Assembly (NCBI RefSeq): GCF_053078305.1
Contig: NZ_CP166879.1
Length of the DNA: 64,000 nt
Direction: 5' to 3' (one strand)
Under the pieces are notes generated by a model. The model was not told the origin of the DNA and did no database searches. It saw only the letters and a list, made by a program, of their open reading frames with translations. Positions 33,109 through 52,234 of this stretch are shown here, piece by piece. The stretch's first letter is position 1, and every line of letters starts with the position of its first letter. Made by a program: the position numbers and the translations under genes.

Positions 33109-33183
33109 AGTGAAATTTCACAAAGATCAGGATAAAAGCCACCAGCCTATGGTCGGTGGCTTTGCATCAATTCAGGAGAGGTT

Positions 33184-34320
33184 TTATTTCAGTTTGGTCT
33201 GGAAAAATTGTTCGAACTTCGCGAAAGGTATTTTTCCGGCCACGTTATCGTACAGGTCCACGTGATTTGCCCCTGGTACCACCACCAACTCTTTGTCTTT
33301 ACTGCCAACCGCCTTGTAAGCATCTTCAGCAAAATAGCGTGAATGTGCTTTCTCACCGGTCACAATCAGCGTCGGAATGGTTATTTCACTGGCGTAGCTC
33401 AACAGCGGCATATTCATAAATGACAGCGGCATCGTTGCCGTCCACGCCCCGGTAGAGTTAACGGAACGTTCGTGGAAGCCGCGCGGCATGCGATAGTAGT
33501 CAAAGAACTCTTTCAGTACCGGATGAGGATTTGCCGGCAGCGTTTCTGGCAGAATGCGCTCGCCCGCACTGACCTTGCCGTTGCTGTCGACATTAATATC
33601 ATGACCACCGTGAGCGAACGTTCCGCTCTGCGCATCCTTCCAGCGCTGTTCATTCAGATATTGCAGAACAGCACGACGGTCGGCGGTAGAATAACGGTCT
33701 TCGCCATCCCCCACACCATGGCCCATCGCCCGGCTCATGTCATACATCACGCTGGTAGCAACCGCTTTAACGCGGGTATCCATCGCCACGTCGTTCAGCG
33801 CCATGCCACCCCAGCCACAAATACCGAGCAGCCCGATACGGTTGCGATCTACCTCTTTTTGCAGCCCTAAGAAATCCACCGCCGCGCTGAAATCTTCAGT
33901 GTTGATATCCGGTGAGGCGACGTTCCGCGGATAGCCGCCGCTTTCCCCGGTGTAAGAAGGATCGAACGCCAGGGTAACAAACCCTCGTTCCGCCAGCGTC
34001 TGCGCATACAAGCCGCTGGATTGCTCTTTCACCGCGCCAAATGGCCCACTGACCGCAATCGCCGCCAGCTTGCGATCGCCACGGTCTTTAGGCAGGTAAA
34101 GATCGCCCACTAAGGTGATGCCATATCGGTTCGGGAACGATACTTTACGGTGATCGACTTTCTGGCTCTCGGCGAACGTTTTATCCCATTTATCGGTCAT
34201 GGACACAGGGGCATTAGGATTGGTTGAATCAGCATAACTCATTGTCGTGACTCCACTTAATGATGCGAAAAGCAGCATGGCCGGCATCGCGGTTTTTAGC
34301 GTTCGGGTGAAGGCTTTCAT
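33184..34320 (-). CDS. secreted alpha/beta hydrolase, dienelactone-hydrolase-like (paralogue of the 13485..14405 product)
   Basis: ORF 33184..34341; signal peptide; nucleophile elbow LGICGWGG with Cys; C-terminal NHVDLYD. Confidence 0.7.
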   Translation of the reverse strand: MKAFTRTLKTAMPAMLLFASLSGVTTMSYADSTNPNAPVSMTDKWDKTFAESQKVDHRKVSFPNRYGITLVGDLYLPKDRGDRKLAAIAVSGPFGAVKEQSSGLYAQTLAERGFVTLAFDPSYTGESGGYPRNVASPDINTEDFSAAVDFLGLQKEVDRNRIGLLGICGWGGMALNDVAMDTRVKAVATSVMYDMSRAMGHGVGDGEDRYSTADRRAVLQYLNEQRWKDAQSGTFAHGGHDINVDSNGKVSAGERILPETLPANPHPVLKEFFDYYRMPRGFHERSVNSTGAWTATMPLSFMNMPLLSYASEITIPTLIVTGEKAHSRYFAEDAYKAVGSKDKELVVVPGANHVDLYDNVAGKIPFAKFEQFFQTKLK

Positions 34321-34506
34321 AAAAATCCCCATAAAAAACAACAGAGAGATACAGGTTTCCGACGGACAACGCTGCGGTGCTTTACTTTGATGGGGTCATT
34401 ATAGTGAGCAGAATTAGTGCTGATTAGGGGGCGATTAATGCTAAGATTAATACCATATTGTTATAAATTAATGCGAAGATTGCCGGCATGAAGGGGGGAT
34501 GTTTCA

Positions 34507-35391
34507 ATGGCGAAAAGGGAGAACTACAACGAGCTGTACCTGTTTATGCAGGTGGTGCGAGAAGGCAGCTTTACCGCAGCGGCTCAGCGGCTGGGTCTTG
34601 CTCAGTCAGGAGTCAGCCGTTCTGTTCGCGAGCTTGAAGAAAGGCTGGGTGTCCAGCTGCTAGTGCGCACCACGCGTAAACTGTCGCTGACACAAGCAGG
34701 CGAGCAGCTCTACCAGAAGACGGCATCTGGATTTGAAATGTTAGATCTTGGGCTTGCCACACTGGCGCACTATCGAGAGACGCCCTCCGGCACGGTGCGT
34801 ATCAATGCCAGCCAGCACGCGATTGATAAATGCCTGCTGCCAAAGCTGGCGGTATTTAAACAGCGATATCCTGATATCCGGCTTGAACTGATAAATGAGA
34901 GCCGGTTCGTCGATATCATCGAGGAAAGATTCGATGCAGGTGTCCGCCTGGGGCCTGAAGTCGGCCAGGGTATGGTCGCGGTACGCATCACGCCCGATAT
35001 GGAGATGGCAATTGTGGGGACTCCGGAACATTTTCGTCGCTATGGTTTTCCGCAAACTCCGGCGGATTTAAAGGCGCATCCCTGTATCGCCTATCAGTTT
35101 GCCGACGGCAGCGTATACCAGTGGGAACTCAATCAGGATGATAAAAAAATCACTCATCAACCCGAAGGACAATGGGCCCTATCCGACAGCTATATGGAAG
35201 CAGAAGCCGCCCGGCTGGGCCTCGGATTGGCCTATGTTCCTGTTGAACTGGTCGCGGATGATTTAGAACACGGTAAGCTTATCAGGGTGTTGCAGCGTTA
35301 CAGCCTGCGAATGGAGGGATTGTTTCTCTATTACCCTCATCGCAACGTCTCCCCCGCTCTGCGGATGGTCATTGATACATTGAAAATCTGA
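34507..35391 (+). CDS. LysR-family transcriptional regulator
   Basis: 294 aa; HTH FTAAAQRLGLAQSGVSRSVRELEERL; divergent from hydrolase. Confidence 0.8.
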   Translation: MAKRENYNELYLFMQVVREGSFTAAAQRLGLAQSGVSRSVRELEERLGVQLLVRTTRKLSLTQAGEQLYQKTASGFEMLDLGLATLAHYRETPSGTVRINASQHAIDKCLLPKLAVFKQRYPDIRLELINESRFVDIIEERFDAGVRLGPEVGQGMVAVRITPDMEMAIVGTPEHFRRYGFPQTPADLKAHPCIAYQFADGSVYQWELNQDDKKITHQPEGQWALSDSYMEAEAARLGLGLAYVPVELVADDLEHGKLIRVLQRYSLRMEGLFLYYPHRNVSPALRMVIDTLKI

Positions 35392-35629
35392 ACGTTAACA
35401 ACGACCGACTCTTCACGGTGCAATATTGTGTCAGGTAGTCACTCTGCGTTCAATTCCAGGGTCTGCTTTGAGCGAGAAAGAGCAGACTTATCTGTACAAG
35501 GGGACTATCCAGCAATGGAGATCATCCAAAAGAAAAAACCACCTGGCTCCCCTCGACAACCTTAATCCGGGCATTTAGCCTCAATCAACATTTTCATATC
35601 TGTCAGGTTACTTCATTATGAAAACCGAT

Positions 35630-35880
35630 CAATATCGTTGTTTTTGTTGCAACAGTAGAATACGCGTATTTATCCCTCCATTTCTATTAATAACGGCAAT
35701 AAACTGTTCATTTCACTGATATTTAAAATATGCATCCTTTTCAAGCTGTTCAGCGGCGTAAGAAAACGTATTAAATATGAATTCGACGATTTAACCATTT
35801 CTGTCTGATTGGTAATCATCTGTGATTAATGCTGGTCTATTGATTACGCCAGCATTAACCGCTTAGGGATGTATTCTTCC
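35630..35880 (+). repeat. degenerate paralogous copy of the ykgR and ykgO-3'/downstream segments (ykgM and most of ykgO absent)
   Basis: 35633..35745 aligns with 16300..16415 (ykgR region, frame disrupted); 35745..35880 aligns with 17105..17240 (ykgO 3' end and downstream) at roughly 75% identity by eye. Confidence 0.6.
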
Positions 35881-36093
35881 TGATCATATACAGCCCTCGA
35901 AAAAGAGAGAAAATAAAACTGTGTCCAATATTACTCTACCACTCCAGACCGAAGCATCGGTAGAATTAGCAGAACGACTGGTACAATAGATTGGGATAGC
36001 GTCATTTGTCAGGTATTCCATTGCCTGACAAATGACAATTTTGAGTCAATAGACGTGCTTCTTGATCATGTCTTAAAAATTATACCATGAGCC

Positions 36094-36366
36094 TTATGAA
36101 GCATCATTTTTACTGACTGGTGTTAATTTTGCTATCATATAAACTCTGTTCTTAAAAAACGCGCCCAGAATTTTATATGATTTCCCTTGTTTTTCTGCCT
36201 GTAAAGAAATTTCTTTTTCAGTGCTGTCAATGGTTGAACCGACGGCAGTAATCGTTTTGGCGACGCTACTGAATGATAATAAAGACAGTGTAACAACAAC
36301 AATTAAAGAACAGATAGTATTCACGCTAATTCTCCTGACAATTGAGAGGATGAGTTTTATATACAT
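36094..36366 (-). CDS. small secreted DUF1471-like (YjfY/BhsA-type) protein
   Basis: 90 aa; N-terminal hydrophobic signal, then ITAVGSTIDSTEKEISLQAEKQGKSYKILGAF pattern typical of DUF1471 stress proteins. Confidence 0.45.
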   Translation of the reverse strand: MYIKLILSIVRRISVNTICSLIVVVTLSLLSFSSVAKTITAVGSTIDSTEKEISLQAEKQGKSYKILGAFFKNRVYMIAKLTPVSKNDAS

Positions 36367-36536
36367 AGGTATTAAACATGAGTCATATTTACCCCAAGAG
36401 AAAATACTCCTTCTGTAATTAAACCTTCATCTCCTTCGGGGTGAGCAATACATAATACATCTTGCTATGAAAACACAGGGATATATAAATCTTCCTTCTG
36501 ACCTATTTAATAAAACGTGAATGTAAAAGTTATTCT

Positions 36537-36779
36537 TCAGTTTGCAGATGCAGTGGGTCTGATGGTAATTTCGGTTGTATCAACGCTTTCGGGAGATTCA
36601 ATAATATGCCTTACCGCACGGGCAATATCCGCAGGTTGAAGTGCAACAGAACGGTAGGCGTCCATTGCCTTCATGGTTTCCACATGGGTAATGGTTGAAG
36701 CCAGTTCACTTTCGACAACGCCAGGATTTACGCAGGTCACACGGATTTTCGAGCTTTCCTGCCGTAAGCCATCAGAAAT
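36537..36779 (-). pseudogene. C-terminal fragment of a short-chain dehydrogenase/reductase
   Basis: 67-aa ORF matching only the SDR C-terminus (NPGVVESELASTITHVET ... ADIARAVRHIIESPESV); no N-terminal Rossmann part; abuts a second gene fragment. Confidence 0.55.
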
Positions 36780-36780
36780 A

Positions 36781-37216
36781 GCCCGTACTGCAAATCAGGC
36801 AGCGTGAAATGGTCGTTGCCTCTCCCTCCTATCTCGCAGCCAACAGCACACCTGTTCATCCGCGTGAACTTGTGAATCATAAGTGTATCGGCTGGCGTCA
36901 ATCCCCGGATGTTGCGCCTTATCGCTGGCCATTTGAAGAAAACGGGAGAGCTTTCGACCTTGCGATTGAACCACAGATTACGACTAATGATCTGCGTCTG
37001 ATGTTGAGGCTGGCTCTTGCCGGCGGAGGAATAACAATTGCCACTCAGGAAACTTTCAGGCCGTATATTGAAAGCGGTAAGCTTGTATCTCTGCTTGATG
37101 ACTTTCTTCCACAATTTCCGGGCTTCTATCTGTATTTCCCACAGCGTCGCAATATTGCACCAAAGCTCCGCGCCCTGATTGACCACGTCAAGGAATGGCG
37201 GCAGCAATTGGCTTAA
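36781..37216 (+). pseudogene. C-terminal fragment of a LysR-family regulator (substrate-binding domain only)
   Basis: 135-aa ORF with LysR C-terminal motif FPGFYLYFPQRRNIAPKLRALIDHV but no HTH; junction with SDR fragment near 36780. Confidence 0.55.
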
Positions 37217-37553: not shown

Positions 37554-38873
37554 ATGACTTTTACTATTACACAAGACAGACAATTGGCTTCATTGACCGT
37601 TACTAAAGAAGAAAAAGAAATCTTATTTGCTGTAAAATCTAAAGCTGGGGGAGGACTCTTTATACGCGTTCGTTATGGTAGCGACAATAAAAGCTGGATT
37701 TATCGTTATCGAATAGCTCAAAAGCCAGCTAAATTAACACTAGGTAGTTACCCTGCCATGGGATTAGCTCAAGCTCGTAAAGCTCATGCGGATGCAATTG
37801 AATTAGTAAGAAAAGGTATAGATCCTCGTCATATTAGAAAAAATGAAAAACAAAAAAATGAACAAATGATTATTTACTCTGAATTATGGAAAGATTGGAT
37901 AGAATTCAGAAAGACAAGTAAACCAATTAGCACCAGAACCCTTGCAGATTATGAAGGGACTTATCACCGCCACCTTGAAAAAGCATTAGGAAACCTTCGC
38001 ATTGACGAACTTACCAAAAGCGTTATTTTTGAACATCTCAGTAATGTAAGAAAAACCAGTTCTGAAGCAGTTCGTAAAGGATTAATTATTCTAAATATGA
38101 CTCTTGATCATGCCAACTTACAGGGTATGCTTGAGCATAACCCAGCACGACTGCTCAAACCAGCAATGTTTGGTGCATCGATGAATAAACCTCGCGAGCG
38201 ATGGCTTCCTGAGAATGAACTCCGGATGCTATGGAAGGCTTTGGATGATGCTACTGTTGGAGGAGGCTCCATTGCATCTGGTGGCTATGGAATTTCCTCT
38301 AGTGTGGTATTATCTCATTCTGTCGCAAATGCACTCCGTTTGATTATTTTCACAGGAGTGCGCCGCTCTGAAGCGGCACAAATGCGCTGGGATCAAATTA
38401 ATGGAGAGCGTTGGACCATACCAGCCACTAAAAATGGGAAAAGCCATATTGTTACTTTACATCCGTATATGCTTTCTTTAATAAAAACACAACGTGAATT
38501 CACTGAAGGTGCATATGTTTTTGGTTCTACTAGCAAACCTGGCTTTCCCATCACAAATGACGCTCTGACTCGCGCGTTAGAAAGGGTTCGCTCTAAGTAT
38601 CTAGCCGAACTTACTCCATTTTCTCCTCATGATCTGCGTAGAAGTGTTGCGACTGGATGCGCTGAATACCTTGATGCTCCAGAGCGCCTAATAGAGTTAC
38701 TGTTAAATCATGTACCCAAAGACCGTTTAATACGAACATATCAAGTCGGACAACAAGCTGAAAAATTAAAAAATTTATTTATAGAATGGGGGAATTTTAT
38801 TATGAATAACGTCATTACTGTGCAGCAGAATGCTCCGGATAATGTTATTCATATAAAATTTGGGAACAGATGA
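37554..38873 (+). CDS. intF: tyrosine recombinase, P4-like prophage integrase
   Basis: ORF 37518..38873; N-terminal arm-binding/SAM-like region and C-terminal catalytic domain (HDLRRSVATG ... LLNHV... Y); adjacent to tRNA fragment; symbol by analogy to the CP4-6 integrase. Confidence 0.85.
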   Translation: MTFTITQDRQLASLTVTKEEKEILFAVKSKAGGGLFIRVRYGSDNKSWIYRYRIAQKPAKLTLGSYPAMGLAQARKAHADAIELVRKGIDPRHIRKNEKQKNEQMIIYSELWKDWIEFRKTSKPISTRTLADYEGTYHRHLEKALGNLRIDELTKSVIFEHLSNVRKTSSEAVRKGLIILNMTLDHANLQGMLEHNPARLLKPAMFGASMNKPRERWLPENELRMLWKALDDATVGGGSIASGGYGISSSVVLSHSVANALRLIIFTGVRRSEAAQMRWDQINGERWTIPATKNGKSHIVTLHPYMLSLIKTQREFTEGAYVFGSTSKPGFPITNDALTRALERVRSKYLAELTPFSPHDLRRSVATGCAEYLDAPERLIELLLNHVPKDRLIRTYQVGQQAEKLKNLFIEWGNFIMNNVITVQQNAPDNVIHIKFGNR

Positions 38874-38965
38874 TAAAAATACATGCATGGTCTGAGATAC
38901 CCTGTCTACTCGACCATGCAGTATGGTTCAACTAAATCAGTCACAACAAGAAATGATTAGTTTTA

Positions 38966-39814
38966 TTAGATATTGTATGGGATTATTTCTGGATAATACT
39001 TCGCAATGATGTCATTTAGCCGATCAACCAGTTCTGGTTTTCTGAACGTGATATGCGCGGAGCCCTTCTTAAAGTATCTGATGCTGAACATCTCATCTTC
39101 ATAGCAGGCTTTGCCCTGAACGGAGCGGATGTGATCATCCAGCCGAATAATGATATTTTCCCGGCTGTCGGGGATCGGTTTGCCGCTGAACAGGTGCAGC
39201 ATTCTTTCCAGGTCGGCAAGTCGATCTGCCTGTTGCCCGGTGATAAGATGCAATCCCCACCGGTCCCACCTCACCAGATTGTTGACGATAATTTTACTGC
39301 CAAATTTACAGGGGCAATTGGTTTTGTAATCCCAGCTCAGTCCCCTGAAGACGTTGATGACCCCACGCTCAAACACTTCATCCTTATTCTGGTGTAGCTG
39401 CTCAAACGTACTCAGTATATTCTCTTCACTGATTTCCGGAAAATTATCGTACTCCAGTGACCGGTACCATGTATCACGGGCCTGTGCATCCATTAAGGAA
39501 AGCATCCCTGAACGTTGCATCAGGTCACGCCAGATTTCACGGTCAAGGTTGCGGGTGATGGCTTTCATTGCCGTTTCAGGTTTCTCCATCAGCCAGCAAC
39601 CGCAGCGAAAATCCTGTTTCATGGCCCAGTCCGGAGCAGTTTTACCTCCAATACTTTCTGTCATTGCTGATATTTCAGCCAGTTGCCGGATAAGTGTGTC
39701 GATTTGCAGAAGTGTGCTCTTTCGTACAGCCAAAATGTGGCGGATACTGGTTGAGCAGATAACGTCCGTATGCCCGTTGACCACTTCCGGACGGGCGATT
39801 GTGATGCCTGACAT
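38966..39814 (-). CDS. hypothetical island protein (282 aa), function unknown
   Basis: long ORF with coding-like composition between integrase and a hairpin; CGC and CPC motifs; no family recognised. Confidence 0.5.
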   Translation of the reverse strand: MSGITIARPEVVNGHTDVICSTSIRHILAVRKSTLLQIDTLIRQLAEISAMTESIGGKTAPDWAMKQDFRCGCWLMEKPETAMKAITRNLDREIWRDLMQRSGMLSLMDAQARDTWYRSLEYDNFPEISEENILSTFEQLHQNKDEVFERGVINVFRGLSWDYKTNCPCKFGSKIIVNNLVRWDRWGLHLITGQQADRLADLERMLHLFSGKPIPDSRENIIIRLDDHIRSVQGKACYEDEMFSIRYFKKGSAHITFRKPELVDRLNDIIAKYYPEIIPYNI

Positions 39815-39830
39815 AATCGGTTTTCCTTTC

Positions 39831-39869
39831 TGTTTATAAATGAAAACGCCAGCCGTATTCAGGCTGGCG
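39831..39869 (-). terminator. putative intrinsic terminator downstream of the TA/yeeW-like operon
   Basis: hairpin acgccagcc-gtattca-ggctggcgt followed on minus strand by T-rich tract. Confidence 0.4.
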
Positions 39870-40127
39870 TCGGGGGAATGAAGTGTGGTGAGAAAGATAA
39901 TGAGTGAAACTCACCGGTTCAGGTGCTGAAACTGCAGATGGCGCAGAGTTCGGACATCCTGTCGCGCCTGTTCGATACAGGGCAACAGTGCTGCCGAATC
40001 CGTTTTATCCTCATCGTTGTCAAAGATAATTTCCGATTCGCAGTCAATATTGTCCTGCAGCCACGCAATCAGAATATCCAGCGCCGTTTCTGTGGTTAAT
40101 AATTTCATCCAGTGTCTTTTGTCCTGA

Positions 40128-40616
40128 TTACCAGTCGAAAGTGGGGAACCCCGGCAGACATTCTGCGCTGGCGTCCAGATGAATGAGACTGACGCCATAA
40201 CGCCGGGTGAGTGTGACAACCAGACGACGGAACGTTTTTGACAGGCCCAGGCGCTTAAGCCGCAGAACCGGGTATGACCACGCATCGGTACGTAACAGAT
40301 AGCCGCTGCCTGTAAAATGAATCCATTCTGATTCACCAACGTCACTGGTCTGGTGTGACAGCGAGTACAGCCAGGCGTTGTCCGTTTCCGTGATATGTGC
40401 GGTACTGCAGCGTATGCCGGTAAGGGCAGCAGAGGGGGGTATGCTGTCTGTTGAGGTCCGGTCAGATTCATCAACAACACGAAGGGAGTAGCCATTATCG
40501 CAGACCACGTTAATCAGTTCGGCAAGCTCAACACCATCGACGTCAACGACAATTCGCCCCATGTTCAGTGCCTGTACGTTAACGCTGTCAGCTTCCAGCG
40601 TCAGGGCCAGTTTCAT
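40128..40616 (-). CDS. YeeW-like protein, translationally coupled downstream of the CbtA toxin gene
   Basis: 162-aa ORF starting immediately after toxin stop; identification by position and partial recollection of YeeW sequence. Confidence 0.5.
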
Positions 40617-40990
40617 CGTTTTGCCTCCGGATGCTTGCCCCGGGTAATGTTATTTACCATTCTGTAATTGTTCCGGGTCATCAGGCCGGTCGCCCTGCGA
40701 GCCCGGAGAATATCAATGCTGTTGATTAACTGCGACGGGGCTCCTGCGCTGAATCCCGGCTGGTCGGTACGTACCAGCGCGTATTTTTCAACGAGAAATT
40801 TCACCGCGTCACACAGTGAAATCCCTGCCTCAATATGCTGCTCAATCACACGTTCATCAGCGAACGGTGTGTCATTCAGCGTAAGGCCATAGTGCTGGTC
40901 CAGCAGTCGGGTGAGCAGTGTCTGCCAGATTTCAACAGGAGATGGGCGTGAACTGGCCGACTGCCCGGGTAATACAGGTAATGTTTTCAT
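40613..40990 (-). CDS. cbtA: CbtA/YeeV-family type IV toxin (cytoskeleton-binding toxin)
   Basis: ORF 40613..41131; from internal Met the product [63 protein letters not shown]... matches the CbtA family throughout. Confidence 0.85.
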
Positions 40991-41079
40991 ACTGAAGATT
41001 TTCCTGATATGCAGAGATAAAAAATGGGAAAGTGGCGTGGTGAAAACACCAGGCCGTAGCAGAAGGCTATTCTGGAGGG

Positions 41080-41448
41080 TTAATTTTTCATTTCGGGCGT
41101 CGGATAAACAGCCAGATAAACGTAACCACAACTGCCGAGGGTATCGGCTTTGCAGGTCAGCCCTTTTGCATACAGCGTGACGGTATGCTGATGGCGGGGA
41201 TTCAGTTCACCGCTGGTGAGCATGAGTTCCAGTTGTTTCATCAGCAGCGGAAAGGCCTGGTCCAGGTGGTACGCATCCGCGTCGCTGAACCGGCCTCTGA
41301 TACCGGCGCGGTCGGCAAGGTAATGCAACCGGTTACCCTCCTGCACCAGACGGGCGCCGAAACAGGGCGTCGCGGTGCAGGGTAGCCCCCACCAGGGGCG
41401 GTCGTGATTGTCGTCGGGATGCGTTGTCCCGGGGAGTGTGTCTGACAC
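41080..41448 (-). CDS. cbeA: CbeA/YeeU-family type IV antitoxin
   Basis: ORF 41080..41568; GTG start at 41448 with GAGGA RBS gives (M)[51 protein letters not shown]..., a CbeA-family sequence. Confidence 0.85.
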
Positions 41449-41497
41449 GATAAAATCCTCACAGAAAATCGGTGAATGATAGTTTAACGATGACGGG

Positions 41498-42145
41498 TCA
41501 GCCGGCGCGCAGACCGGCTTCGGTGAAGGTGTATTTGTTGATGAGAAGGGTCTCATCAACAGCGGCATCTGAGGTCAGCCAGTCATACTCGTTTTCCAGT
41601 TGACGGTACAACCAGAAGGCCAGGTCGCGCAGGGCTTCGCTGACTGCGGCTTCCGCATCGGTTGTCATTACCTGACCAGTCGGACTGTTCCGGGTGACGG
41701 TGATATCCATGCTGTACGGATGGCAGTAGCGTCCCCGGAGATTGATTTCAGCCTGAAGCTGCCAGAAGTTACGTTTCTGCACCACCTGCAGGGCATCCGC
41801 GATACGATGAAGCTCACGGTCCTGCGGGGCATATTCCCGGAGCCTCCTGGCTGTTGCTGACTGCCAGTGCCAGCGTCCTTCAAAACAGGCTCCGTCCCCC
41901 TGGCTGCAGAATCCGCTGAACCAGATGCACGGCTCTTCCATAAACCTGCCACTGCTGAGCCGGAAAACGCGCTGGCGGAGGTCAATTCCGAAAATGCCAC
42001 AGACCGCCCTGAAGTCCTCGTACACGTTTTCATACCAGTTGCTGTCAGAATGGTGCACACGGTACCAGTCGCGGGCTTTTTCCCGTGCAGAAGGGCAGGA
42101 AAGTTCATCCAGCGTATACACTGTGGTGGTGATAATGCTGCTCAT
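41498..42145 (-). CDS. hypothetical 215-aa protein inserted between yeeT-like and cbeA (Trp/Cys-rich)
   Basis: long ORF in the module's transcription direction; not part of the canonical yeeS-yeeT-cbeA-cbtA arrangement; several alternative-frame ORFs overlap so the frame is uncertain. Confidence 0.35.
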   Translation of the reverse strand: MSSIITTTVYTLDELSCPSAREKARDWYRVHHSDSNWYENVYEDFRAVCGIFGIDLRQRVFRLSSGRFMEEPCIWFSGFCSQGDGACFEGRWHWQSATARRLREYAPQDRELHRIADALQVVQKRNFWQLQAEINLRGRYCHPYSMDITVTRNSPTGQVMTTDAEAAVSEALRDLAFWLYRQLENEYDWLTSDAAVDETLLINKYTFTEAGLRAG

Positions 42146-42163
42146 CAGAATCCCCTTTCTGAC

Positions 42164-42385
42164 TCAGTTCAGAGTAACGCTCATCAACCGGACATACGGG
42201 CCAAAACTGTCCTTACGGCGTTCAGCAAACACGGCCAGCACACCGGGAATATCCTGCACTTCACGACCGGTATACGTTTCAGCACTGCCGTGCCAGCGGT
42301 ACTTACCGGTACAGAACGGAAAAAGACGGGATGCAGGATGCTGTTGGTGAATACGCATGGCTTCACCACGGGTGATAATTTTCAT
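42164..42385 (-). CDS. yeeT: YeeT-like DUF987 protein (73 aa)
   Basis: MKIITRGEAMRIHQQHP...FPFCTGKYRWHG...GPYVRLMSVTLN matches the YeeT/YkfH family. Confidence 0.8.
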   Translation of the reverse strand: MKIITRGEAMRIHQQHPASRLFPFCTGKYRWHGSAETYTGREVQDIPGVLAVFAERRKDSFGPYVRLMSVTLN

Positions 42386-42453
42386 GATGGGATACCTCTG
42401 AAGACAGAAGATAAAAGTGAAAACAAGTGTGATGTGGTTGTGATGGTGACGGG

Positions 42454-42930
42454 TTAAAGCAGACCGTGTTCAGCAAAGGAGAAAACCTGGCTGCCACCGA
42501 TTATCAGATGGTCCGGCACCCGGATATCCACCAGGGCCAGTGCCTGTACCAGACGTTCCGTAATAAGGCGGTCAGCCTTACTGGGTGTGACTTCACCTGA
42601 CGGGTGATTGTGCGCCAGCACCACGGCAGCGGCATTGTGGTACAGGGCACGTTTAATCACTTCCCGGGGATGGACTTCCGTGCGGTTGATGGTGCCGGTG
42701 AAGAGGGTTTCACCGGCAATCAGCTGATTCTGATTGTTCAGATACAGCACCCGGAACTCTTCCCGCTCCAGTCCCGCCATGTTCAGAATCAGCCACTCCC
42801 GTGCCGCACGGGTGGAGGTGAAGGCCACGCCGGGTTCATGAAGATGGCGGTCCAGGGTTTTCAGGGCCCGCAGAATGAGACTGCGCTCGCCGGGCGTCAT
42901 CTCTCCGGGCAGAAAGGAAAGCTGTTGCAT
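42454..42930 (-). CDS. yeeS: RadC-like JAB-domain protein (YeeS/YkfG family)
   Basis: ORF 42454..42945; JAMM-like motif HNHPSGEVTPSKADRLITERL; conserved island position. Confidence 0.85.
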   Translation of the reverse strand: MQQLSFLPGEMTPGERSLILRALKTLDRHLHEPGVAFTSTRAAREWLILNMAGLEREEFRVLYLNNQNQLIAGETLFTGTINRTEVHPREVIKRALYHNAAAVVLAHNHPSGEVTPSKADRLITERLVQALALVDIRVPDHLIIGGSQVFSFAEHGLL

Positions 42931-42945
42931 TGTGCTTCTCTCCAT

Positions 42946-43452
42946 TCAGTCGATGATGCGCATAATGGCGCTGCATTCCGGATGCTGCAGGGCGTAATCC
43001 CGCAGCCGGTAATAATGGACCGTCATGGCATAACACTCCGTACGACAGGCATGATGACTGTACGTCATCAGACAGGCAGCAATGCCGGCAGCTTCCGGAC
43101 TCATTTCAGCGCGGTTACCGTTCATGGCATTGAACAGCACCCATGTTTCGTCATCATCATCCGGTTCGGGCGCCATAAATGCGCCACCGTTGTTCAGGGT
43201 GTACAGACTCCAGATACCACCGCAGTAGTCTTCACACAGACGGTCCATCCAGCCGAAGATACGGGGCTCCAGGGTCACCCACTGTGGAATGAGGCCAAAG
43301 TGCTGCGGCCAGAAGCTGATGCGCTGTTCATCAGGGACGGGAGTGGCAACCAGTTGAGACTGGTTATTCCCTGATGCAGCGGTCACGGAAACAGAAGGTG
43401 TGGTGGAATTATGCGAAGAGGTTGTCATGAGATTATTCCTTATAAAAAGCAA
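42946..43452 (-). CDS. antirestriction protein (KlcA/ArdB-like, YfjX/YafX family)
   Basis: 168 aa, acidic, Trp-rich; conserved position upstream of radC-like gene. Confidence 0.75.
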   Translation of the reverse strand: MLFIRNNLMTTSSHNSTTPSVSVTAASGNNQSQLVATPVPDEQRISFWPQHFGLIPQWVTLEPRIFGWMDRLCEDYCGGIWSLYTLNNGGAFMAPEPDDDDETWVLFNAMNGNRAEMSPEAAGIAACLMTYSHHACRTECYAMTVHYYRLRDYALQHPECSAIMRIID

Positions 43453-43516
43453 ATGAATGGAAGAAGTCGCGGGGCAGGGACGGACATGTCAGAACTGCGC
43501 TTTCAGGGAAAAGGCA

Positions 43517-44335
43517 TCAGCGCATACTCTCCAGCAGTGTTTCTGCCATCACCCACAACGCCCGGTTGAGCTTAATGTCGGTGTCGATGCTGTGAATGGC
43601 ACGGGTATGGATACGTTTCCCTCTGGCACTGCGACCGGAAATCCCGCCTTTCAGCATATTTTCCTGGATGGTCTGATAAGTACTCCACAGGTCCTTACCG
43701 TAATCCTCCCGGCGTCGTGGTGTCAGAATGTCGGCGGTGGTGACGGGCTGATGTTCGTCACCATAACGGTAAGTCAGCGCCGCCTGTGCCAGCGCCTGAC
43801 GTGCCGGTGGCGGTAAGAGCAGCGACTGCATGGCATCACGCTTTTCCTCAATCCGGTCAAAAACGCCCACCACTTCGTAAGCCCCTTCAATAACTTTCTC
43901 CACCACGTCTCCCCGGTGCGGAACACGCACCTCTCCCAGAGACTGACCGCAGACGCACCCGTTCTGACAAACGAATCTGAAGTAACCCGGCAGCATCTGG
44001 TAGCTGGAGGTACCGTCATGGGAATTGAGCAGGATGATTTCCGGGACATGCTGTCCGTTTATCTCTCCGGCCCGCCGCAGACGCAGCATGTGTTTTGTGT
44101 ATCCCCGGCGGCCCGGGTCACGTACGCGGGTCTGGCAGGCGAAGAATGGCTGAAAACCTTCCCGCTGCAGGCTTTCCAGTACGGTGATGGTGGGGATCCA
44201 GGTATAGTTCTCGCTTCTGGATGTGTGCTTATCTTCCCCGAATACGCTGGGGACGACTTGCATCAGTTCTTCGCGAGTTAAGGGGCGGTCACGGCGTATC
44301 TGGTTCGCATAACCAAAACGACTGGCTAATCGCAT
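43517..44335 (-). CDS. DUF932-family protein (YfjQ/YafZ-like)
   Basis: 272 aa; conserved island position and family-typical sequence (LLNSHDGTSSYQMLPGYFRFVCQNG). Confidence 0.75.
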   Translation of the reverse strand: MRLASRFGYANQIRRDRPLTREELMQVVPSVFGEDKHTSRSENYTWIPTITVLESLQREGFQPFFACQTRVRDPGRRGYTKHMLRLRRAGEINGQHVPEIILLNSHDGTSSYQMLPGYFRFVCQNGCVCGQSLGEVRVPHRGDVVEKVIEGAYEVVGVFDRIEEKRDAMQSLLLPPPARQALAQAALTYRYGDEHQPVTTADILTPRRREDYGKDLWSTYQTIQENMLKGGISGRSARGKRIHTRAIHSIDTDIKLNRALWVMAETLLESMR

Positions 44336-44746
44336 AATTTGCTCCTTATCGGTGGTTAAGATTTGCTGGTGTAATAAATGAAAAAGCCACGTCTCCCGGA
44401 GAAGACGCGGCCTGATGGGTGAAATGAATGACGTTTATTGTCTGAGAAGACCGTCACTGGCGAGCCGCGTATTAAGCACCTTTCCGGCATCGGGTTCAGA
44501 ATTCCGGCTGCGCCAGCGTCGCTGACCTTCCGCGTTGCGGATAACCCGACGGAAATGCATTCCCGGGTCATTCTGGATAAACACATTGCGGTAAGCGGTT
44601 ATGACAGCAACCGCCTGCCCGTATGAGAAAGATCCTTCAGCCAGGACATACTCTGTGTAACCCGGCATATCTGTTTTCTCCTGATAAATAAAAAGCCTCT
44701 GCCACGCGTTGTGACAGAGGCTGAAGCATGAAACTGACTTCAGGGA

Positions 44747-45202
44747 TCAGTTAACGTTTTTTCCGGAAACGGTAATCAGCAGTGGATGGTAGTCCTGGGG
44801 ATCGAAAACCGATAACGGCAGACTGACACGATGGCCGTTACTTTCTTCAGTTGCTTTAATGATTTCGGTTGTGGCGATATTTTCCACGCACTCCGTTTCC
44901 AGAAATGCGTCTGTGGTTCGCGTGGCATTACTGTCACCAAAAGCTTCCGTTTCCATTTTTCTGGTCACCAGCGTCTGACCATATTTGTCTTTGAGTTGCA
45001 GAGTGATGGTGAGGGGGCCAAATCCTTCACCGTTTCCGCCATTATCCAGCCGGAACTGGTAAGCACAAATATTTCCCGGGAGCCATATCGTATCTGTATT
45101 GCGTATACTGATGTAACGATGATCCTGTGCCCGGAGTGGGGCAGACCACGTTAACCCCAGAATGAAGGCGGTAATCATGCAGGTTTTGAACAGGTGAATC
45201 AT
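44747..45202 (-). CDS. small secreted/lipoprotein-like island protein
   Basis: 151 aa with N-terminal signal peptide MIHLFKTCMITAFILGLTWSAPLRA. Confidence 0.5.
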   Translation of the reverse strand: MIHLFKTCMITAFILGLTWSAPLRAQDHRYISIRNTDTIWLPGNICAYQFRLDNGGNGEGFGPLTITLQLKDKYGQTLVTRKMETEAFGDSNATRTTDAFLETECVENIATTEIIKATEESNGHRVSLPLSVFDPQDYHPLLITVSGKNVN

Positions 45203-45277
45203 GGTATTTACCTCTCTGAGTCATGACGATGACACTGACAAATCAGGTGATAAAACGTAAAAGGCGCAGAATAGCCG

Positions 45278-47800
45278 TTATGCCGGTAACTCCGGAGGTA
45301 ATGCTTCTTCCAGTCGGTTAACCATATTGCCGAGATGGGATGCATCATATTCCATGACGGGGCGTTGCCTGATGATACTGACCACCAGTGGTTTGATTAA
45401 CATATTGGTCGCGGCCCGTTGTTGTATACCGGCGGCGAAAATGATCTCCAGAGCATTCTGATCGATAACACGGGCCAGATTCTCGTTCAGATTTTCAATC
45501 TCATGTCCGGTCAGCAGGAAACTGCCGGCAAGCCATGTCACCTGCTCCTGAATCATTGCCAGAATTTTGACGCGATCTTCTTCAACCAGCGCTCCGGCAA
45601 TTTTTCCTGATACAGCGGAGGCAATCATTCCCCCCAGAACACCGCCAACCACACGCCCTGTCAGTGCACCAAATGGTCCCAGTGGACTGAACAGTATCCC
45701 GCCCGCCACTGACCCGACAGCTCCACCTGCAACACCGGAAGATGCCACGGCAAGATTCCTGATGAACTGCGTACCGGAGATCCGTCCCCGCAACATTTTG
45801 ATCATGTCAGGGCCGGTTGTGACAGCTACCAGTGCCAGAGATGTCACCAGCGTACCCTTCATCACTTTGTTCAGGGCACTGATATTTCCTGCACCGGTCC
45901 CCTTCTGAAGAGCCAGTCGGACAGTCGGGCTGGCAGTCGAAAAATCAATGTGCTTCAGCATACCCTGAACAACACTGAGCCGGTGGAGTTGCTGGGTTGT
46001 GACGTAGACAGCCAGTGTGCGGGTGAAGGTTTTTCCTGCCTGGACAGCAGCTGTCTGCAGGGCAGCATCGCGATCGCCGGTGCTGAGCCAGAAGACCGAT
46101 GCCGTCAGGGCAAAACTGATCCCTCCGGCCGCCAGACTGACAACCGAACCCTCGGCAATATCATAAGTGACCGATTCGATGGTCCCGAACCGGGTGATAT
46201 TACGGGCCTGAGTATAAGTCAGATGTCCCCGACGAATCAGCCGGGACGCTTCTGCGGGATCGGTTACACCGGGTACTTTACCTTCGCGGATCTTATTCCT
46301 CATGGTTTCAACAGCGCCGGCATACTGATCACGGGGGACTTCCAGTTGCATGGGGCCATTATTTCCCATGTAACGATACTGTCCGTTTTGTCCGTCGAAT
46401 GCCGCACCGACGCTACGGGCTGCAGTTGAACAATATTTCGTCTGGATTTCTGTTCCGCTGACCAGTCTGTCTGCTCCATTTCTGGCATTATTATCACCGA
46501 GGATCCGTGCGTTTTTCAGACGGACTCTGTCGACAATATGGTTTCCCCGTTCAGCGGCAAACCCATGTCCCTGCCCTCCGGAAGCAAACATTTTCTCATT
46601 TGTACTCCAGGTTTCCGGCAGTTTCATGAGAATCAGACCATTCGCCGTTGCATCGGAAATAAAACCGGTGTAAGAACGTTCATAAATGTCCTGACACAGT
46701 GTTTCTGTTTCGCGACAAAGAGAGGAGCAGTACCATTCCGGATCCGGCTTATGATTTTCCGGGGCATGATGTACTTCTGTCAGCCCGCAGGAGGCACAGA
46801 TACGAAGCTCATCCACGTGATGGAATGATAAAAAACGGCGACCTTCTGAAAAGGGATACCAGTCACCGCCGTCCAGGCAACGATCGAGAAAATCGTCATT
46901 CGCTTCCGGTGATAAATTCAGGCGGTTCCGGAAGAGCGTTTTCAGTTCATCAGGTGTGAATGACAGGTTCTCTTTCAACTGTTCGTTAAACCCTGCCATG
47001 TTTCTTTCATACCAGGCATTGTTCAGTAACCAGTTTCCGTCTGCCAGTTCAAATTCCCTCAGCTCTCCCCGGGAAATCCGTTGAGAAATGAGCGTCAGCC
47101 AGATGCGCTCCGTCAGTGAGTCAGGAAGGCTGTAATCGTTTTGCAAACTGGTCAGCCACGATTTACTGTTGAGCACCGGTTGTTCTTCCAGTGTCTGGCT
47201 GATGGCACAGGTCAGTTTTTTCAGCGCCTGGATCTGGCTGGCCGCCCATAGCAGCGTCACTAATGCAGCCAGCCAGTACAACAACCCGCCCCACCACATC
47301 AGTGACGGTGAAATATCGTACTGTAACGCGATCAATGGTGCGCATGCAGAACACGCCATAAGGAAAAAGGCAGTATAAAAACAGCAGTAATACCCGTTAA
47401 TTTCCTTGCTGATATCTTCTGGTGTGATCCCGTTCTGCTGAATGTTTTTGATCTGCAGGGGAACAGCCAGCAGACCACCGGCGAGAGCAGTGGTCAGAAT
47501 AAATTTCACAGAGTCAAAGGTGTGAGCCTCCAGCGCGATATGTTTACCATCAAGTCCCCACATGAAGCTGATGATCATTCCGGCAATCGTCAGAAATACG
47601 CCTGCCAGCCAGCGAATATGGAACAACCGGGTTATGCGTTCGGTGATATAGCCAGCCAGTAAGGCCGGGCCGAACAGACACAGCAATATGAGCCCTGCCA
47701 GCGCAGAAGCCGTGCTGATTAATGCTCTGAACAAAAGGCGAAGAATGGCAAATCCTGCGATCAGCAGGATCAGCGCGCCGACTATCTGTAACATAGTCAC
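45278..47800 (-). CDS. YeeR-like inner membrane protein (840 aa) with N-terminal TM bundle, central Cys4 zinc-ribbon-like motif and C-terminal Gly-zipper segment
   Basis: about 6 N-terminal hydrophobic helices; CASCGL...(18)...CSSLC; Gly-rich GVAGGAVGSVAGGILF...GGVLGGMIASAVSG; position immediately downstream of Ag43 as for yeeR. Confidence 0.55.
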   Translation of the reverse strand: MTMLQIVGALILLIAGFAILRLLFRALISTASALAGLILLCLFGPALLAGYITERITRLFHIRWLAGVFLTIAGMIISFMWGLDGKHIALEAHTFDSVKFILTTALAGGLLAVPLQIKNIQQNGITPEDISKEINGYYCCFYTAFFLMACSACAPLIALQYDISPSLMWWGGLLYWLAALVTLLWAASQIQALKKLTCAISQTLEEQPVLNSKSWLTSLQNDYSLPDSLTERIWLTLISQRISRGELREFELADGNWLLNNAWYERNMAGFNEQLKENLSFTPDELKTLFRNRLNLSPEANDDFLDRCLDGGDWYPFSEGRRFLSFHHVDELRICASCGLTEVHHAPENHKPDPEWYCSSLCRETETLCQDIYERSYTGFISDATANGLILMKLPETWSTNEKMFASGGQGHGFAAERGNHIVDRVRLKNARILGDNNARNGADRLVSGTEIQTKYCSTAARSVGAAFDGQNGQYRYMGNNGPMQLEVPRDQYAGAVETMRNKIREGKVPGVTDPAEASRLIRRGHLTYTQARNITRFGTIESVTYDIAEGSVVSLAAGGISFALTASVFWLSTGDRDAALQTAAVQAGKTFTRTLAVYVTTQQLHRLSVVQGMLKHIDFSTASPTVRLALQKGTGAGNISALNKVMKGTLVTSLALVAVTTGPDMIKMLRGRISGTQFIRNLAVASSGVAGGAVGSVAGGILFSPLGPFGALTGRVVGGVLGGMIASAVSGKIAGALVEEDRVKILAMIQEQVTWLAGSFLLTGHEIENLNENLARVIDQNALEIIFAAGIQQRAATNMLIKPLVVSIIRQRPVMEYDASHLGNMVNRLEEALPPELPA

Positions 47801-47914
47801 TCCGTGATGAATATCATGTTATTGTTAATGCCAGCGAATGTGGCGTTGAAGATCCGTTGCGCCGGTCCGGGTCCCGGTCATGATGACCGGGACCACAGAG
47901 AGGCGATGGTTCTG

Positions 47915-50900
47915 TCAGAAGGTCACATTCAGTGTGGCCTGACCGTTATACCCTTCAGCGCTGCTGCCGCTGACGCTGTGGGCATAACCGGCCTGAACGC
48001 CCAGGGTGATATTTTCCCGGACACGGGCTTCCAGTCCGGCCTGCAGGTCCAGTGACGTGCCATTCCGGGACGGTGAGAACGTCATGTTACTGCCGGCTGC
48101 AGCTGTACCCATGCTCATGTCCCCCCGGGAGCTGAAGGTGCGGATAACAGAAGGTTGTACCCACCAGTTCACAGGCAGTTCACTCACACCGTGTTTTGTA
48201 CTGTCGCGCAGGGTGTCACGGGATGAGGTGCCTTCACCAAAGGTCATATCGTTGTGGCTGCCCAGACGGAAACCGGCACGCACATGTTGTGCACTGCCAT
48301 ACCCGAACTTCACATAACCGGCGTTATCCTGGCCGTCATCCAGGGAGAGTCCCTGCCAGGTGTACTGCAGTTGCGGCTCCAGCATCAGATTGTCAGTGAT
48401 ACTGAAGGGCAGACCGGTTTCCAGCGAACCCAGCCAGCCCCACCCCCGGGCGCGGAAGTCGTTATTGTCCGTTGACGCTTTCATGCTGTGGCGGGTTCCC
48501 AGGGCCACAATGTCAGCCCACAGGCCGGAGGATGTATGTGTCAGATTCAGGTATCCGCCAAGGCTGCCGGCATCATCCCGGACCGTGCCGGCACGGGAGG
48601 CGTCATCATCCTTAACATCAACGGAAGAATGGCCTGCAGCACCATATATCCCTGCGGTCACAGACATACCGGCAACCTCTGTTCTCAGCAGGTCACCCTC
48701 CAGGCGGACGAAGCCATAGCTGCCGCTGCTTTCCGGCGTGGCCCCACGGGCAATACCGCCGTTGTTATCGTGACCGAGATGGCCGCCCTGAATGCTGAGA
48801 CGGACGCTGTTATTTTCACCGTTTACACCGGTCTGATGGCTGCGTGAGCCTGCCAGAATCCGGTCATAGTCCATTGCCTGTGTCAGCATGGAGGCATACA
48901 GGGGGACTTCTGCACGATAAGCATTTTCACTGCGCAGATACCAGCTCTCATCACTGTCCCGGTTGAGGGAGTAGTTAAAGGCACCGGCCTGCAGCCTGTT
49001 CCCCTGGACAAAGGCCCCTTCCTCCGTGGTGGCACCGTTAATGGCTTCCACCACCTGAATACCCTTACCGCTGGTCGCCAGCCCCGACGCACTGTTGCCA
49101 GCGTTCACCAGGTTCAGGATGGTTTTTCCGGTTGCCCTGCCACCGTCAATGACCAGTCTGTCAGCATTGTTCTGTGCCATATCCGGGCGTACACGCAGGC
49201 TGATGGTGCCATTCTGTCCGTTCAGGTTTTTCACTTTCAGGGTTGCCGGTACGAACTTCCCTGTGCGGGTGGAGGTGAAATGAATCTGTCCGGCATGGCT
49301 GAGGTCATCCACCACCGACTGCACCGTGGCGTTATCGGGGATATTCCAGGTGGCACCGGAGGCGAGAGTGACATTCGTGGGGTCAATGGCACCGTTCAGC
49401 ACAGTGCTGCCGGTCAGCTTCAGGGCTGTACCGCGCTGAGCAATGACATCCGTGGTGACGGTACTGTCGTTCAGCGTCAGCGTGCCTTCATTCAGGTTGA
49501 CGGCTTTCTGGGTGAGTGTGGTGTTGCTGACAGTGAGTGTGCCACTTCCTGATTTTTCCACGCTGCCGTTACCGGTGAGAGAGCCTCCCTGCAGGAGTGC
49601 ATCGCCTTCACGGATGGTCAGGGTATCGTTGTTCACCGTCTTCCCGGAAAGGGTAAGTATGGCGCCGTTATTCAGCGTGGTGGTGCCCGCCAGTGTGCCG
49701 CCCCTGGCGGTGAACAGTCCGCCATTTACCGTGGTATCCGTGGCCGTATCACCGGCGTTCAGCGTGAATGAACTGCCTTTTTCCAGCATCAGGGCATCCG
49801 CCTGACCGCCTCCGATACTGAATGCCTTTCCGTCGCTCCGTGTACCACTGACAGCGGCACCGGAATCGGCCAGCAGTACACCGCCATTCCCCATGGATAC
49901 GGTGGTGGCGGCACCACCGTTGCGGACATCCAGCGTTCCGCCATCATCCACACGGGTATTAGTGGCTGTGTGTCCGCTCAGCACATCCAGACGTCCGCCA
50001 TTTTCCAGTACGACATTATCAGCTTTACCCTCCACAACAGAGAATGCTCCCTGGCGGTTTATGCCGGTAACGGTTGCAGCCGTACTGGTAACCAGTGCGC
50101 CGCCCTGCTTCAGGGTGACATTCGTGGCTGTACCACCGGCGTTCACCTGCAGTTTGCCTTTCTGGTTAACGGTGGTGAAATCCGCCAGACCACCTTCCTT
50201 GACAATCTGCCAGCCGTCACTGTTTACAACCGTGTCAGAGGCTGTGCCTCCGTTGTGCACATACTGGTAACCGCCATTCAGTGTGGTATCCAGCGCATGC
50301 CCGTGTACCGTCTGGTCGCCGCCGGCATAAACCACAGTGGTATTTGCTGTTCCTTCAGCAGCCACAATCTGACGACCATTTTTATTGATAGTGGTACGTA
50401 CGGCATTTCCGCGAACAAACTGCCCGGTATCACCATTTTCTGCATCTGGTCCCCCTTCCGCGCCGGTATTCACAACCGTGTCGGTTGCCATTGCGCCGGA
50501 TTTGACGGCCTGCCAGCCCTTCTCATTAATGACGGTACCCGTTGCAATCCCGCCTTCATGTACCCACTGCTCACCGCCGTTCAGAGTGGTGTTCACTGCC
50601 TGCCCCTGAAGGCTCTGTCCGCCTCCGGCACTGATAACCGTGTCTGAAACACTTCCGCCGGGATTCACTCTCTGAAGACCACCACTGGTGACAGTCGTTT
50701 TGTTGGCTGTACCGCCATCCTGTACCCATTGACCGCCGGTATTGGCCTCATTGTCCGGCCCGTACTCCAGCCCGGTACTGATGGTCATTCCGTTGGTCAT
50801 ACCGAAGACAATCTGGTTGTCATGATTTGTCAGTGTTCCGCCGCTCACGGTTTCTCCCGCCTGTACAACCGTGTCAGCAGCCAGTGCCGGGACTGATGTG

Positions 50901-51034
50901 ACAGCAGCAAGAGACAGCGCAACCGCCACTCCGGCGCGTTTTCCCCGTGAGCGGGCCAGTTCGGAGGCCACCACCAGGGTGCCCGTAATGTGATTCCATA
51001 CCAGCCTGTAGCTGGTGTTCAGATGTCGTTTCAT
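47915..51034 (-). CDS. flu: Antigen 43 (Flu) self-associating autotransporter adhesin
   Basis: ORF 47915..51190; 1039 aa from MKRHLNTSYRLVWNHITGTLVVASELA extended signal peptide, passenger beta-helix repeats, C-terminal beta-barrel ending in aromatic residue. Confidence 0.9.
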   Translation of the reverse strand: MKRHLNTSYRLVWNHITGTLVVASELARSRGKRAGVAVALSLAAVTSVPALAADTVVQAGETVSGGTLTNHDNQIVFGMTNGMTISTGLEYGPDNEANTGGQWVQDGGTANKTTVTSGGLQRVNPGGSVSDTVISAGGGQSLQGQAVNTTLNGGEQWVHEGGIATGTVINEKGWQAVKSGAMATDTVVNTGAEGGPDAENGDTGQFVRGNAVRTTINKNGRQIVAAEGTANTTVVYAGGDQTVHGHALDTTLNGGYQYVHNGGTASDTVVNSDGWQIVKEGGLADFTTVNQKGKLQVNAGGTATNVTLKQGGALVTSTAATVTGINRQGAFSVVEGKADNVVLENGGRLDVLSGHTATNTRVDDGGTLDVRNGGAATTVSMGNGGVLLADSGAAVSGTRSDGKAFSIGGGQADALMLEKGSSFTLNAGDTATDTTVNGGLFTARGGTLAGTTTLNNGAILTLSGKTVNNDTLTIREGDALLQGGSLTGNGSVEKSGSGTLTVSNTTLTQKAVNLNEGTLTLNDSTVTTDVIAQRGTALKLTGSTVLNGAIDPTNVTLASGATWNIPDNATVQSVVDDLSHAGQIHFTSTRTGKFVPATLKVKNLNGQNGTISLRVRPDMAQNNADRLVIDGGRATGKTILNLVNAGNSASGLATSGKGIQVVEAINGATTEEGAFVQGNRLQAGAFNYSLNRDSDESWYLRSENAYRAEVPLYASMLTQAMDYDRILAGSRSHQTGVNGENNSVRLSIQGGHLGHDNNGGIARGATPESSGSYGFVRLEGDLLRTEVAGMSVTAGIYGAAGHSSVDVKDDDASRAGTVRDDAGSLGGYLNLTHTSSGLWADIVALGTRHSMKASTDNNDFRARGWGWLGSLETGLPFSITDNLMLEPQLQYTWQGLSLDDGQDNAGYVKFGYGSAQHVRAGFRLGSHNDMTFGEGTSSRDTLRDSTKHGVSELPVNWWVQPSVIRTFSSRGDMSMGTAAAGSNMTFSPSRNGTSLDLQAGLEARVRENITLGVQAGYAHSVSGSSAEGYNGQATLNVTF

Positions 51035-51214
51035 CAGCTTTTCCTTAGATTGAGGGTGAATAAAAAAGCCGGTACCCACAAACGTGGATACCGGCAGGTA
51101 AAGGGTTACAGTGCCGGAGGTCCGGCTGTGGGAGTTTCTGAATTGTGGTTCTGTTGTTCCCTGAATGTCTTTCTGTACGTATCTGTGCATGTTACTGACA
51201 AAGGTTATTATTAG

Positions 51215-51260
51215 CTTATCGATCGATATAAACGATCGATAAAATAGGTATCGATCGTTT
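51215..51260. promoter_or_regulatory. agn43 phase-variation switch: three Dam GATC sites within the OxyR operator
   Basis: GATC at 51221, 51234 and 51253 in the sequence tcgatcgatataaacgatcgataaaataggtatcgatcg, ~180-225 bp upstream of flu start. Confidence 0.75.
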
Positions 51261-51361
51261 TATTCTATTGTTTGGCTATTGCACGGACAAGAGAGACAGT
51301 AACGAAAACAGCGCTTTTGTGAGCAGACTCAGAGTCAGGGAGGGCATCAGTCACGACAGGT

Positions 51362-52234
51362 TCAGAAGAAAATCCAGTTCCATACCGCACGGGCAACAGA
51401 GACCACCGTGTTACGAACAGCGCGCAGGGCCGTACGGACAACAGAGGCAACACAGACGCTCTCCGCTGTGTCAAATATCCGGTCCACCGCACCGGTAAAC
51501 TGTTCACGGGCCTGAGACCGGACAGATTCCGTGCGCAGCTCGTCCTGCAGTCGGGTCATCAGGGGACTGGCGGCATGGTCGGGAAGCGCTGTCATGAGCG
51601 CACTGACCAGCGTATCCAGTTCCCAGCCGGTGCGGGCCGATACGGCCACAACCGGATGTACGGGCCGGAACAGACGGAATACCGCCTCCGTTTTTTCGCG
51701 AATATTCTGTGCCTGTGCAGGAGAAGGCTGAATACCGGCCATATCCCATTCATGGCAGGGCTCCGTTTTGTCGGCCTGCGTCACCACAAACAGCACCTGC
51801 TGATGTCCGCACTGCAGGATGTGTCGCCAGAAATACTCATCCACAGACAGGGCACGGTCATCGGCTTTAATCAGCCACAGTACCAGGTCAAGTTCAGGCA
51901 GAATGTCACGGTACAGGGCTTCATACTCAGCATCCCTGTCCCGGCTCTCGCCCACCCCGGGCAGGTCAGTGATAACCATGCTGTGACCATGGCCACTCAG
52001 ACGGAAGCGCTGCACTTCCCGGGTGCCAGCGTGAACATCACTGACCGGGGTGACCTCCCCCTGAAACAGTGCATTACAGAGTGAGGATTTACCGGCCCCG
52101 CTTTTACCCATAATGCCAATCACGGGTTCGTGGCTGGTGAGTTTGCGCAGATGTTCCAGGATGTGACGGGAAAGTGAATAAGGCAGGGAGGAGAGTGGTT
52201 TTTCAATTGCCTCAATGGCATCAGACGGATTCAT
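51362..52234 (-). CDS. yeeP: YeeP/YkfA-like island GTPase
   Basis: ORF 51362..52297; Walker A GKSGAGKSS, G3 DLPG, NKxD-like TQADK; start assigned to MNPSDAIE. Confidence 0.8.
   Translation of the reverse strand: MNPSDAIEAIEKPLSSLPYSLSRHILEHLRKLTSHEPVIGIMGKSGAGKSSLCNALFQGEVTPVSDVHAGTREVQRFRLSGHGHSMVITDLPGVGESRDRDAEYEALYRDILPELDLVLWLIKADDRALSVDEYFWRHILQCGHQQVLFVVTQADKTEPCHEWDMAGIQPSPAQAQNIREKTEAVFRLFRPVHPVVAVSARTGWELDTLVSALMTALPDHAASPLMTRLQDELRTESVRSQAREQFTGAVDRIFDTAESVCVASVVRTALRAVRNTVVSVARAVWNWIFF

Follow-up and report, generated by a model that had tools for sequence, protein, structure and literature searches.

A single DUF905 (YkfF-family) gene in the gap between the IrmA and DUF932 genes of a CP4-type island

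Gene content of the gap

The window analyzed here is a 64,000-nucleotide stretch of contig NZ_CP166879.1 (RefSeq assembly GCF_053078305.1). A gap of 411 bp (44336-44746) separates two genes of the island, both on the minus strand, and the open reading frames (ORFs) within it and its two neighbours are as follows.

43517..44335, minus strand: DUF932 gene, the downstream neighbour (Pfam E=8.7e-51)
44356..44586, minus strand: 76-aa ORF (ORF listing)
44435..44668, minus strand: 77-aa ORF (77 aa plus stop codon), the DUF905 (PF06006, YkfF-family) gene
44438..44626, plus strand: 62-aa ORF (ORF listing)
44747..45202, minus strand: IrmA-family gene of 151 aa, the upstream neighbour (Pfam IrmA E=2.1e-38; PGAP annotation)

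These three are exactly the ORFs of at least 60 aa listed within 44336-44746; they overlap one another and lie in different frames. An earlier note on this DNA had described several overlapping small ORFs in a gap of about 400 bp, and this description was borne out: the ORFs span 62 to 77 aa, and their number is above chance, with 2000 mononucleotide shuffles of the 411 bp giving a mean of 0.56 ORFs of at least 60 aa (P for three or more, 0.014). The excess over the shuffles is present because one real gene brings with it out-of-frame and antisense shadow ORFs. The same note's expectation that CP4-type islands carry small genes at such a gap also held, in that a DUF905 gene is present, and the "secreted island protein" with which it bounded the gap is the 151-aa gene that matches IrmA.

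When the 601-bp segment 44250-44850 was compared with complete E. coli genomes by megablast, matches were found in 4187 of 5426, at a median of 2 places per genome and at up to 14. Strain STEC17-190 is 100% identical to the window over the 601 bases compared, and its RefSeq annotation marks exactly the 77-aa ORF as a "DUF905 family protein" (WP_024210659.1), lying between an "IrmA family protein" and a "DUF932 domain-containing protein". The DUF905 gene has already been annotated in thousands of E. coli genomes; the gene is annotated in RefSeq, it belongs to a family with a solved structure, and nothing in this is new.

Elsewhere, the window differs from STEC17-190, its closest complete genome, by about 5 kb of additional DNA at 31790-36878, in the interval from the pao operon side to the island integrase. 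The island is 99.6% identical in the two, and the window lacks, at about 50829-50852, the IS66 insertion that splits Ag43 in STEC17-190; because this insertion is absent, Ag43 is probably intact here. Between Ag43 and IrmA, 45278-47800 on the minus strand encodes a predicted multi-pass membrane protein of 840 aa ("hypothetical protein" in RefSeq), whose sole Pfam match is a weak, sub-threshold one to a C19orf12-like family (E=0.0096).

The 77-aa ORF encodes a member of the DUF905 family

The 77-aa ORF scored 61.8 bits with the Pfam DUF905 model (PF06006; gathering score 22.3; E=6.4e-17), aligned over profile positions 2-68 of 70, and its product also matched E. coli YkfF, whose structure was solved by NMR (2HJJ), with E=7e-15. 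AlphaFold2, given an alignment of 30 sequences, produced a model with a pLDDT of 78.5 that consists of a helix, three strands and a helix; the product is a 77-residue soluble protein, predicted on this model to retain the YkfF fold of a three-strand sheet between two helices. DUF905 proteins are stand-alone products of about 70-80 aa from enterobacterial islands and plasmids, a size range into which the 77 residues fall. By HMM score, fold, length and context alike, the ORF is a member of Pfam DUF905. A ribosome-binding site was read from the sequence just ahead of it:

44678..44682, minus strand: Shine-Dalgarno AGGAG, 9 nt before the ATG at 44668

Residues conserved in the DUF905 family alignment were scored (A19, A21, V22, Y26, N28, E32, D34, F39, R40, V42, R44, W52, R53, N56, E58, A61, G62, N66 and G73). 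The family-invariant N28, F39, R44 and G73 are all present, as are the nearly invariant residues with the exception of E32, which is here Q. In the clade to which the window protein belongs, the consensus residues L41, W55, F57 and Y69 have been replaced by R, R, S and R, respectively, and the protein is unusually basic, with a pI of about 10.

The family itself is narrow: 99 representatives were retrieved at E<=1e-3 from 1.84 billion cluster representatives. Two of them, P0146 and P0182, had the appearance of multi-copy DUF905 proteins but were rejected as unrelated repeat proteins. Tblastn against the window found only the copy at 44435..44668, the sole match in PHROGs was phrog_8779, a family of unknown function, and no NCBIfam model matched the candidate ORFs or IrmA.

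The type member of DUF905 is K-12 YkfF, encoded in the CP4-6 prophage (PDB 2HJJ). Relative to YkfF, the window protein belongs to a paralogous subfamily rather than being an orthologue; it is strongly basic, with several hydrophobic and aromatic consensus residues replaced as above. The settings differ as well, the window gene lying between IrmA and DUF932, whereas ykfF of K-12 is directly upstream of yafX.

Predicted terminators flank the DUF905 gene

Two hairpins with T-runs were found on the minus strand of the gap, one on each side of the DUF905 gene.

44684..44722, minus strand: upstream intrinsic terminator, after the IrmA gene (12-bp stem at 44722..44694, plus T-run)
44374..44413, minus strand: downstream intrinsic terminator, after the DUF905 gene (13-bp stem at 44413..44384, plus T-run)

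RNA folding gave -21.7 kcal/mol (z=-6.2) for the upstream hairpin and -22.6 kcal/mol (z=-5.6) for the downstream one, with 7 G-C pairs in each. The former lies 24 nt past the stop codon of IrmA and 11 nt short of the DUF905 Shine-Dalgarno sequence; the latter lies 21 nt past the DUF905 stop and 38 nt upstream of the DUF932 start (T-run end 44374, start codon 44335). From their sequences, both are predicted to be strong intrinsic terminators, the one ending the IrmA transcript and the other following DUF905.

The whole gap was aligned between the window and nine further island copies sharing 81-98% DNA identity. The AGGAG is conserved in the IrmA-linked homologues. The downstream hairpin is nearly invariant in 10 of 10 homologues, the only variable stem position alternating between G-U and G-C. 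L009 and L010 lack an intergenic spacer; each of the eight homologues with one has a hairpin at the upstream site, although the hairpin sequence varies with the gene upstream, which may be IrmA, Ag43 or another hypothetical gene. Five of the eight keep the T-run of this upstream hairpin (L012, L005, L011, L002 and the window), with three kinds of upstream gene represented among them, whereas in L006, L007 and L008 four T's have been lost from it.

A promoter scan of 44100-45300 found no sigma-70-like promoter, and over 38000-52000 the count of sigma-70-like sites was no higher than in shuffled sequence. Because the island DUF905 gene has no recognizable promoter of its own, its expression would be expected only through read-through of the upstream terminator, which is the simplest inference. 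For ykfF of K-12, a sense transcript went undetected (PMC5389530).

Only the DUF905 frame is conserved among island copies

To determine which of the three frames is maintained, pooled pN/pS was computed from the alignment over the segment common to all three ORFs. The DUF905 frame gave 0.42, the 76-aa frame 0.81 and the 62-aa frame 0.97, while the three remaining frames gave 1.06, 0.70 and 0.96. Stop codons interrupt the 76-aa ORF in L005, L006, L011, L009 and L010, and the 62-aa ORF in L011, L009 and L010; DUF905 is intact in L005, L011, L009 and L010, where the alternative ORFs are broken. On plasmids, similarity to DUF905 persists at 36-47% protein identity in spite of a DNA divergence too great for matches at the nucleotide level, and conservation of this kind can be explained only by a coding function in the DUF905 frame.

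These results bear on two other readings of the gap. That the 76-aa ORF or the 62-aa ORF is a real gene, besides or in place of DUF905, is suggested by both being open in the window and in its closest relative, L012; but both are interrupted in other relatives and evolve at the near-neutral rates given above, neither has a match in Pfam or NCBIfam, the 76-aa ORF reads through a terminator hairpin, and RefSeq annotates neither in any of the genomes examined, so that we give this reading almost no credence. The important content of the gap might instead be non-coding, a small RNA or an antisense transcript, as two very stable, conserved hairpins with T-runs could indicate; in K-12, moreover, ykfF is reported to have an antisense RNA, about 500 nt long, opposite it (PMC5389530). 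This too appears very improbable, if a little less so: no Rfam family was matched at E<=1 on either strand of 43000-46000, so that no known small RNA or riboswitch is present there, the hairpins are fully accounted for by termination after IrmA and after DUF905, and the protein-level conservation seen on plasmids is left unexplained by it.

Together these data show that only one protein-coding gene lies in the gap, at 44435..44668 on the minus strand, and that the other two ORFs are non-coding shadow frames. The earlier note had held that none of the ORFs could be called from sequence alone, a view that does not stand for the 77-aa ORF, which can be called from its Pfam match, its homology to YkfF, its Shine-Dalgarno sequence and ATG, the flanking terminators and the identical RefSeq annotation. 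Conservation across islands, which that note had named as a check, was found for the 77-aa frame and speaks against the 76-aa and 62-aa ORFs.

Homologues in the leading regions of conjugative plasmids

DUF905 homologues were detected by tblastn on at least 5000 enterobacterial plasmids, and 85% of the plasmids among these listed matches are conjugative by prediction. An IncK2/Z plasmid (L003) and F both have, in their leading regions, the order ssb, DUF905, ParB-like gene, psiB, psiA; in F the homologue was assigned to yfjA by gene position. The window protein shares 43% identity with the F protein and 47% with the IncK2/Z copy; it is of the same Pfam family and the same 77-aa length as F YfjA, of which it is a paralogue, and the "ykfF" products of IncI and IncK plasmids. 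A further likeness is that homologues of DUF932 and of ArdB/KlcA-type antirestriction proteins are found on the same element. The window DUF932 protein is 65% identical to that of the F leading region (BLASTP, E=1e-133), and the window antirestriction protein is 28% identical to its F counterpart. Three consecutive island genes (42946-44668; DUF905, DUF932 and antirestriction) thus all have homologues in the F leading region (L013, F 55000-67000).

In transconjugants, YfjA-sfGFP is produced early and for a short time only, from the single-stranded DNA promoter Frpo2 (PMC9849209; PMC12672017); such timing has been shown for F YfjA alone. Deletion of Frpo2 left the conjugation frequency of F unchanged (PMC9849209). 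A common location of DUF905 close to psiB and psiA has been pointed out (PMC12826799), "ykfF" of IncI1 plasmids has been assigned to the ssi3 leading-region operon, and RNA of the pO157 DUF905 copy was induced 5-fold by ciprofloxacin (PMC11125564).

The window gene was considered as a member of a Frpo-driven leading-region operon of this type, and this was rejected: neither a hairpin promoter nor ssb, ParB-like, psiB or psiA neighbours were found. A search of 42000-48500 for inverted repeats of 14 nt or longer, as expected of a Frpo/ssi-type hairpin, found none, the hairpins present being the two short terminators, and the RefSeq annotation of the closely related island (99.6% identical) contains neither ssb nor psiB. 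The plasmid copies are Frpo2-driven and belong to a ssb-psiB operon. Since the island copy lacks both an Frpo-like hairpin and ssb or psiB as a neighbour, the mode of expression described for plasmids cannot be transferred to the island. The block of the CP4-type island resembles a plasmid leading region minus ssb, psiB and the single-stranded DNA promoters.

The flanking structures differ also. The island copy has a T-run terminator on each side, whereas F yfjA is bracketed by short G+C-rich hairpins without T-runs (L013 4190-4240 and 4476-4505), GCCCCG...CGGGGC upstream and GCCGGACG...CGTCCGGC downstream, which may be intercistronic RNA structures.

Constraint and possible decay of island copies

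DUF905 is frameshifted or truncated in 4 of 10 sampled island copies, at the following positions.

L002, 3195-3390: broken DUF905 copy
L006, 1758-1847: broken DUF905 copy
L007, 1681-1889: broken DUF905 copy
L008, 1695-1892: broken DUF905 copy

In the three broken copies that have an IrmA neighbour, DUF932 and IrmA on either side are intact; L002 has Ag43 upstream instead. Broken copies beside intact flanks suggest that DUF905 is dispensable in chromosomal islands. Between distant copies pN/pS was 0.31-0.39, and between the window and its close relatives L005 and L011 it was 0.59-0.87; the island copies look weakly constrained, and the window gene may be on its way to decay.

A stronger form of this view is that the 77-aa ORF, albeit intact, is a dead relic, silent and under relaxed selection, kept only because the island is young. 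The broken copies and the high within-clade pN/pS fit such a state, as does the substitution of Arg and Ser for hydrophobic and aromatic consensus residues in the window clade; so do the strong terminator directly upstream, with no promoter found in its vicinity, and the K-12 precedent of an undetected ykfF sense transcript accompanied by antisense RNA. Set against these are the intact ORF, Shine-Dalgarno sequence and start codon of the window gene, the lower pN/pS among more distant copies, the confident AlphaFold2 model in which the YkfF fold is kept, and the retention of all four invariant residues. On balance we consider a relic rather unlikely, while taking it seriously.

Discussion

We are highly confident in the account as a whole, namely one DUF905 gene with its shadow ORFs, an inferred role in an establishment gene set, and weak constraint on the island copies; its separate parts carry the strengths given to each.

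As to role, we tentatively propose, at a likelihood somewhat short of even, that DUF905 proteins are non-enzymatic binding proteins encoded within the set of "establishment" genes that conjugatively transferred DNA carries. Plasmids of the IncF, IncI and IncK groups have the homologue between ssb and a ParB-like gene, just before psiB/psiA, and there it would be transcribed from Frpo2 and made only transiently in the new host. The island gene occupies a homologous block, composed of DUF905, DUF932, an ArdB/KlcA-type antirestriction gene and RadC; its product would most likely bind, or once have bound, a protein of the host or of the element that is involved in handling incoming DNA. The notion of a binding protein draws on small size, lack of catalytic motifs and genomic context, and its basis is limited to these three because net charge is not conserved and the search for structural neighbours of the 77-aa model returned no informative one beyond YkfF. 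Net charge in the DUF905 family ranges from -4 to +5, a spread that also speaks against a family-wide property of DNA mimicry or generic nucleic-acid binding. Two points count against the proposed mechanism: to our knowledge, none of the DUF905 proteins has a demonstrated function, and F conjugates at an unchanged frequency when Frpo2 is deleted.

A bolder proposal, which we regard as improbable though worth stating, is that the island block of DUF905, DUF932 and ArdB/KlcA-like genes could be the fossil, or even the active, leading region of integrative mobilisable elements. DUF905 would then be an unrecognized establishment or anti-defence factor common to islands and IncF/IncI/IncK plasmids, a small binder of the inhibitor type, and the basic, aromatic-depleted subfamily of the window would have been retargeted rather than be decaying.

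The useful outcome for this locus is that a region called "unresolved" has been resolved and two overlapping ORFs recognized as spurious, which carries little weight as discovery. In the leading regions of conjugative plasmids from enterobacteria, DUF905 ranks with the most widespread genes; that it occurs together with DUF932 and antirestriction genes, on plasmids and islands alike, makes it a reasonable candidate for establishment or anti-defence screens.
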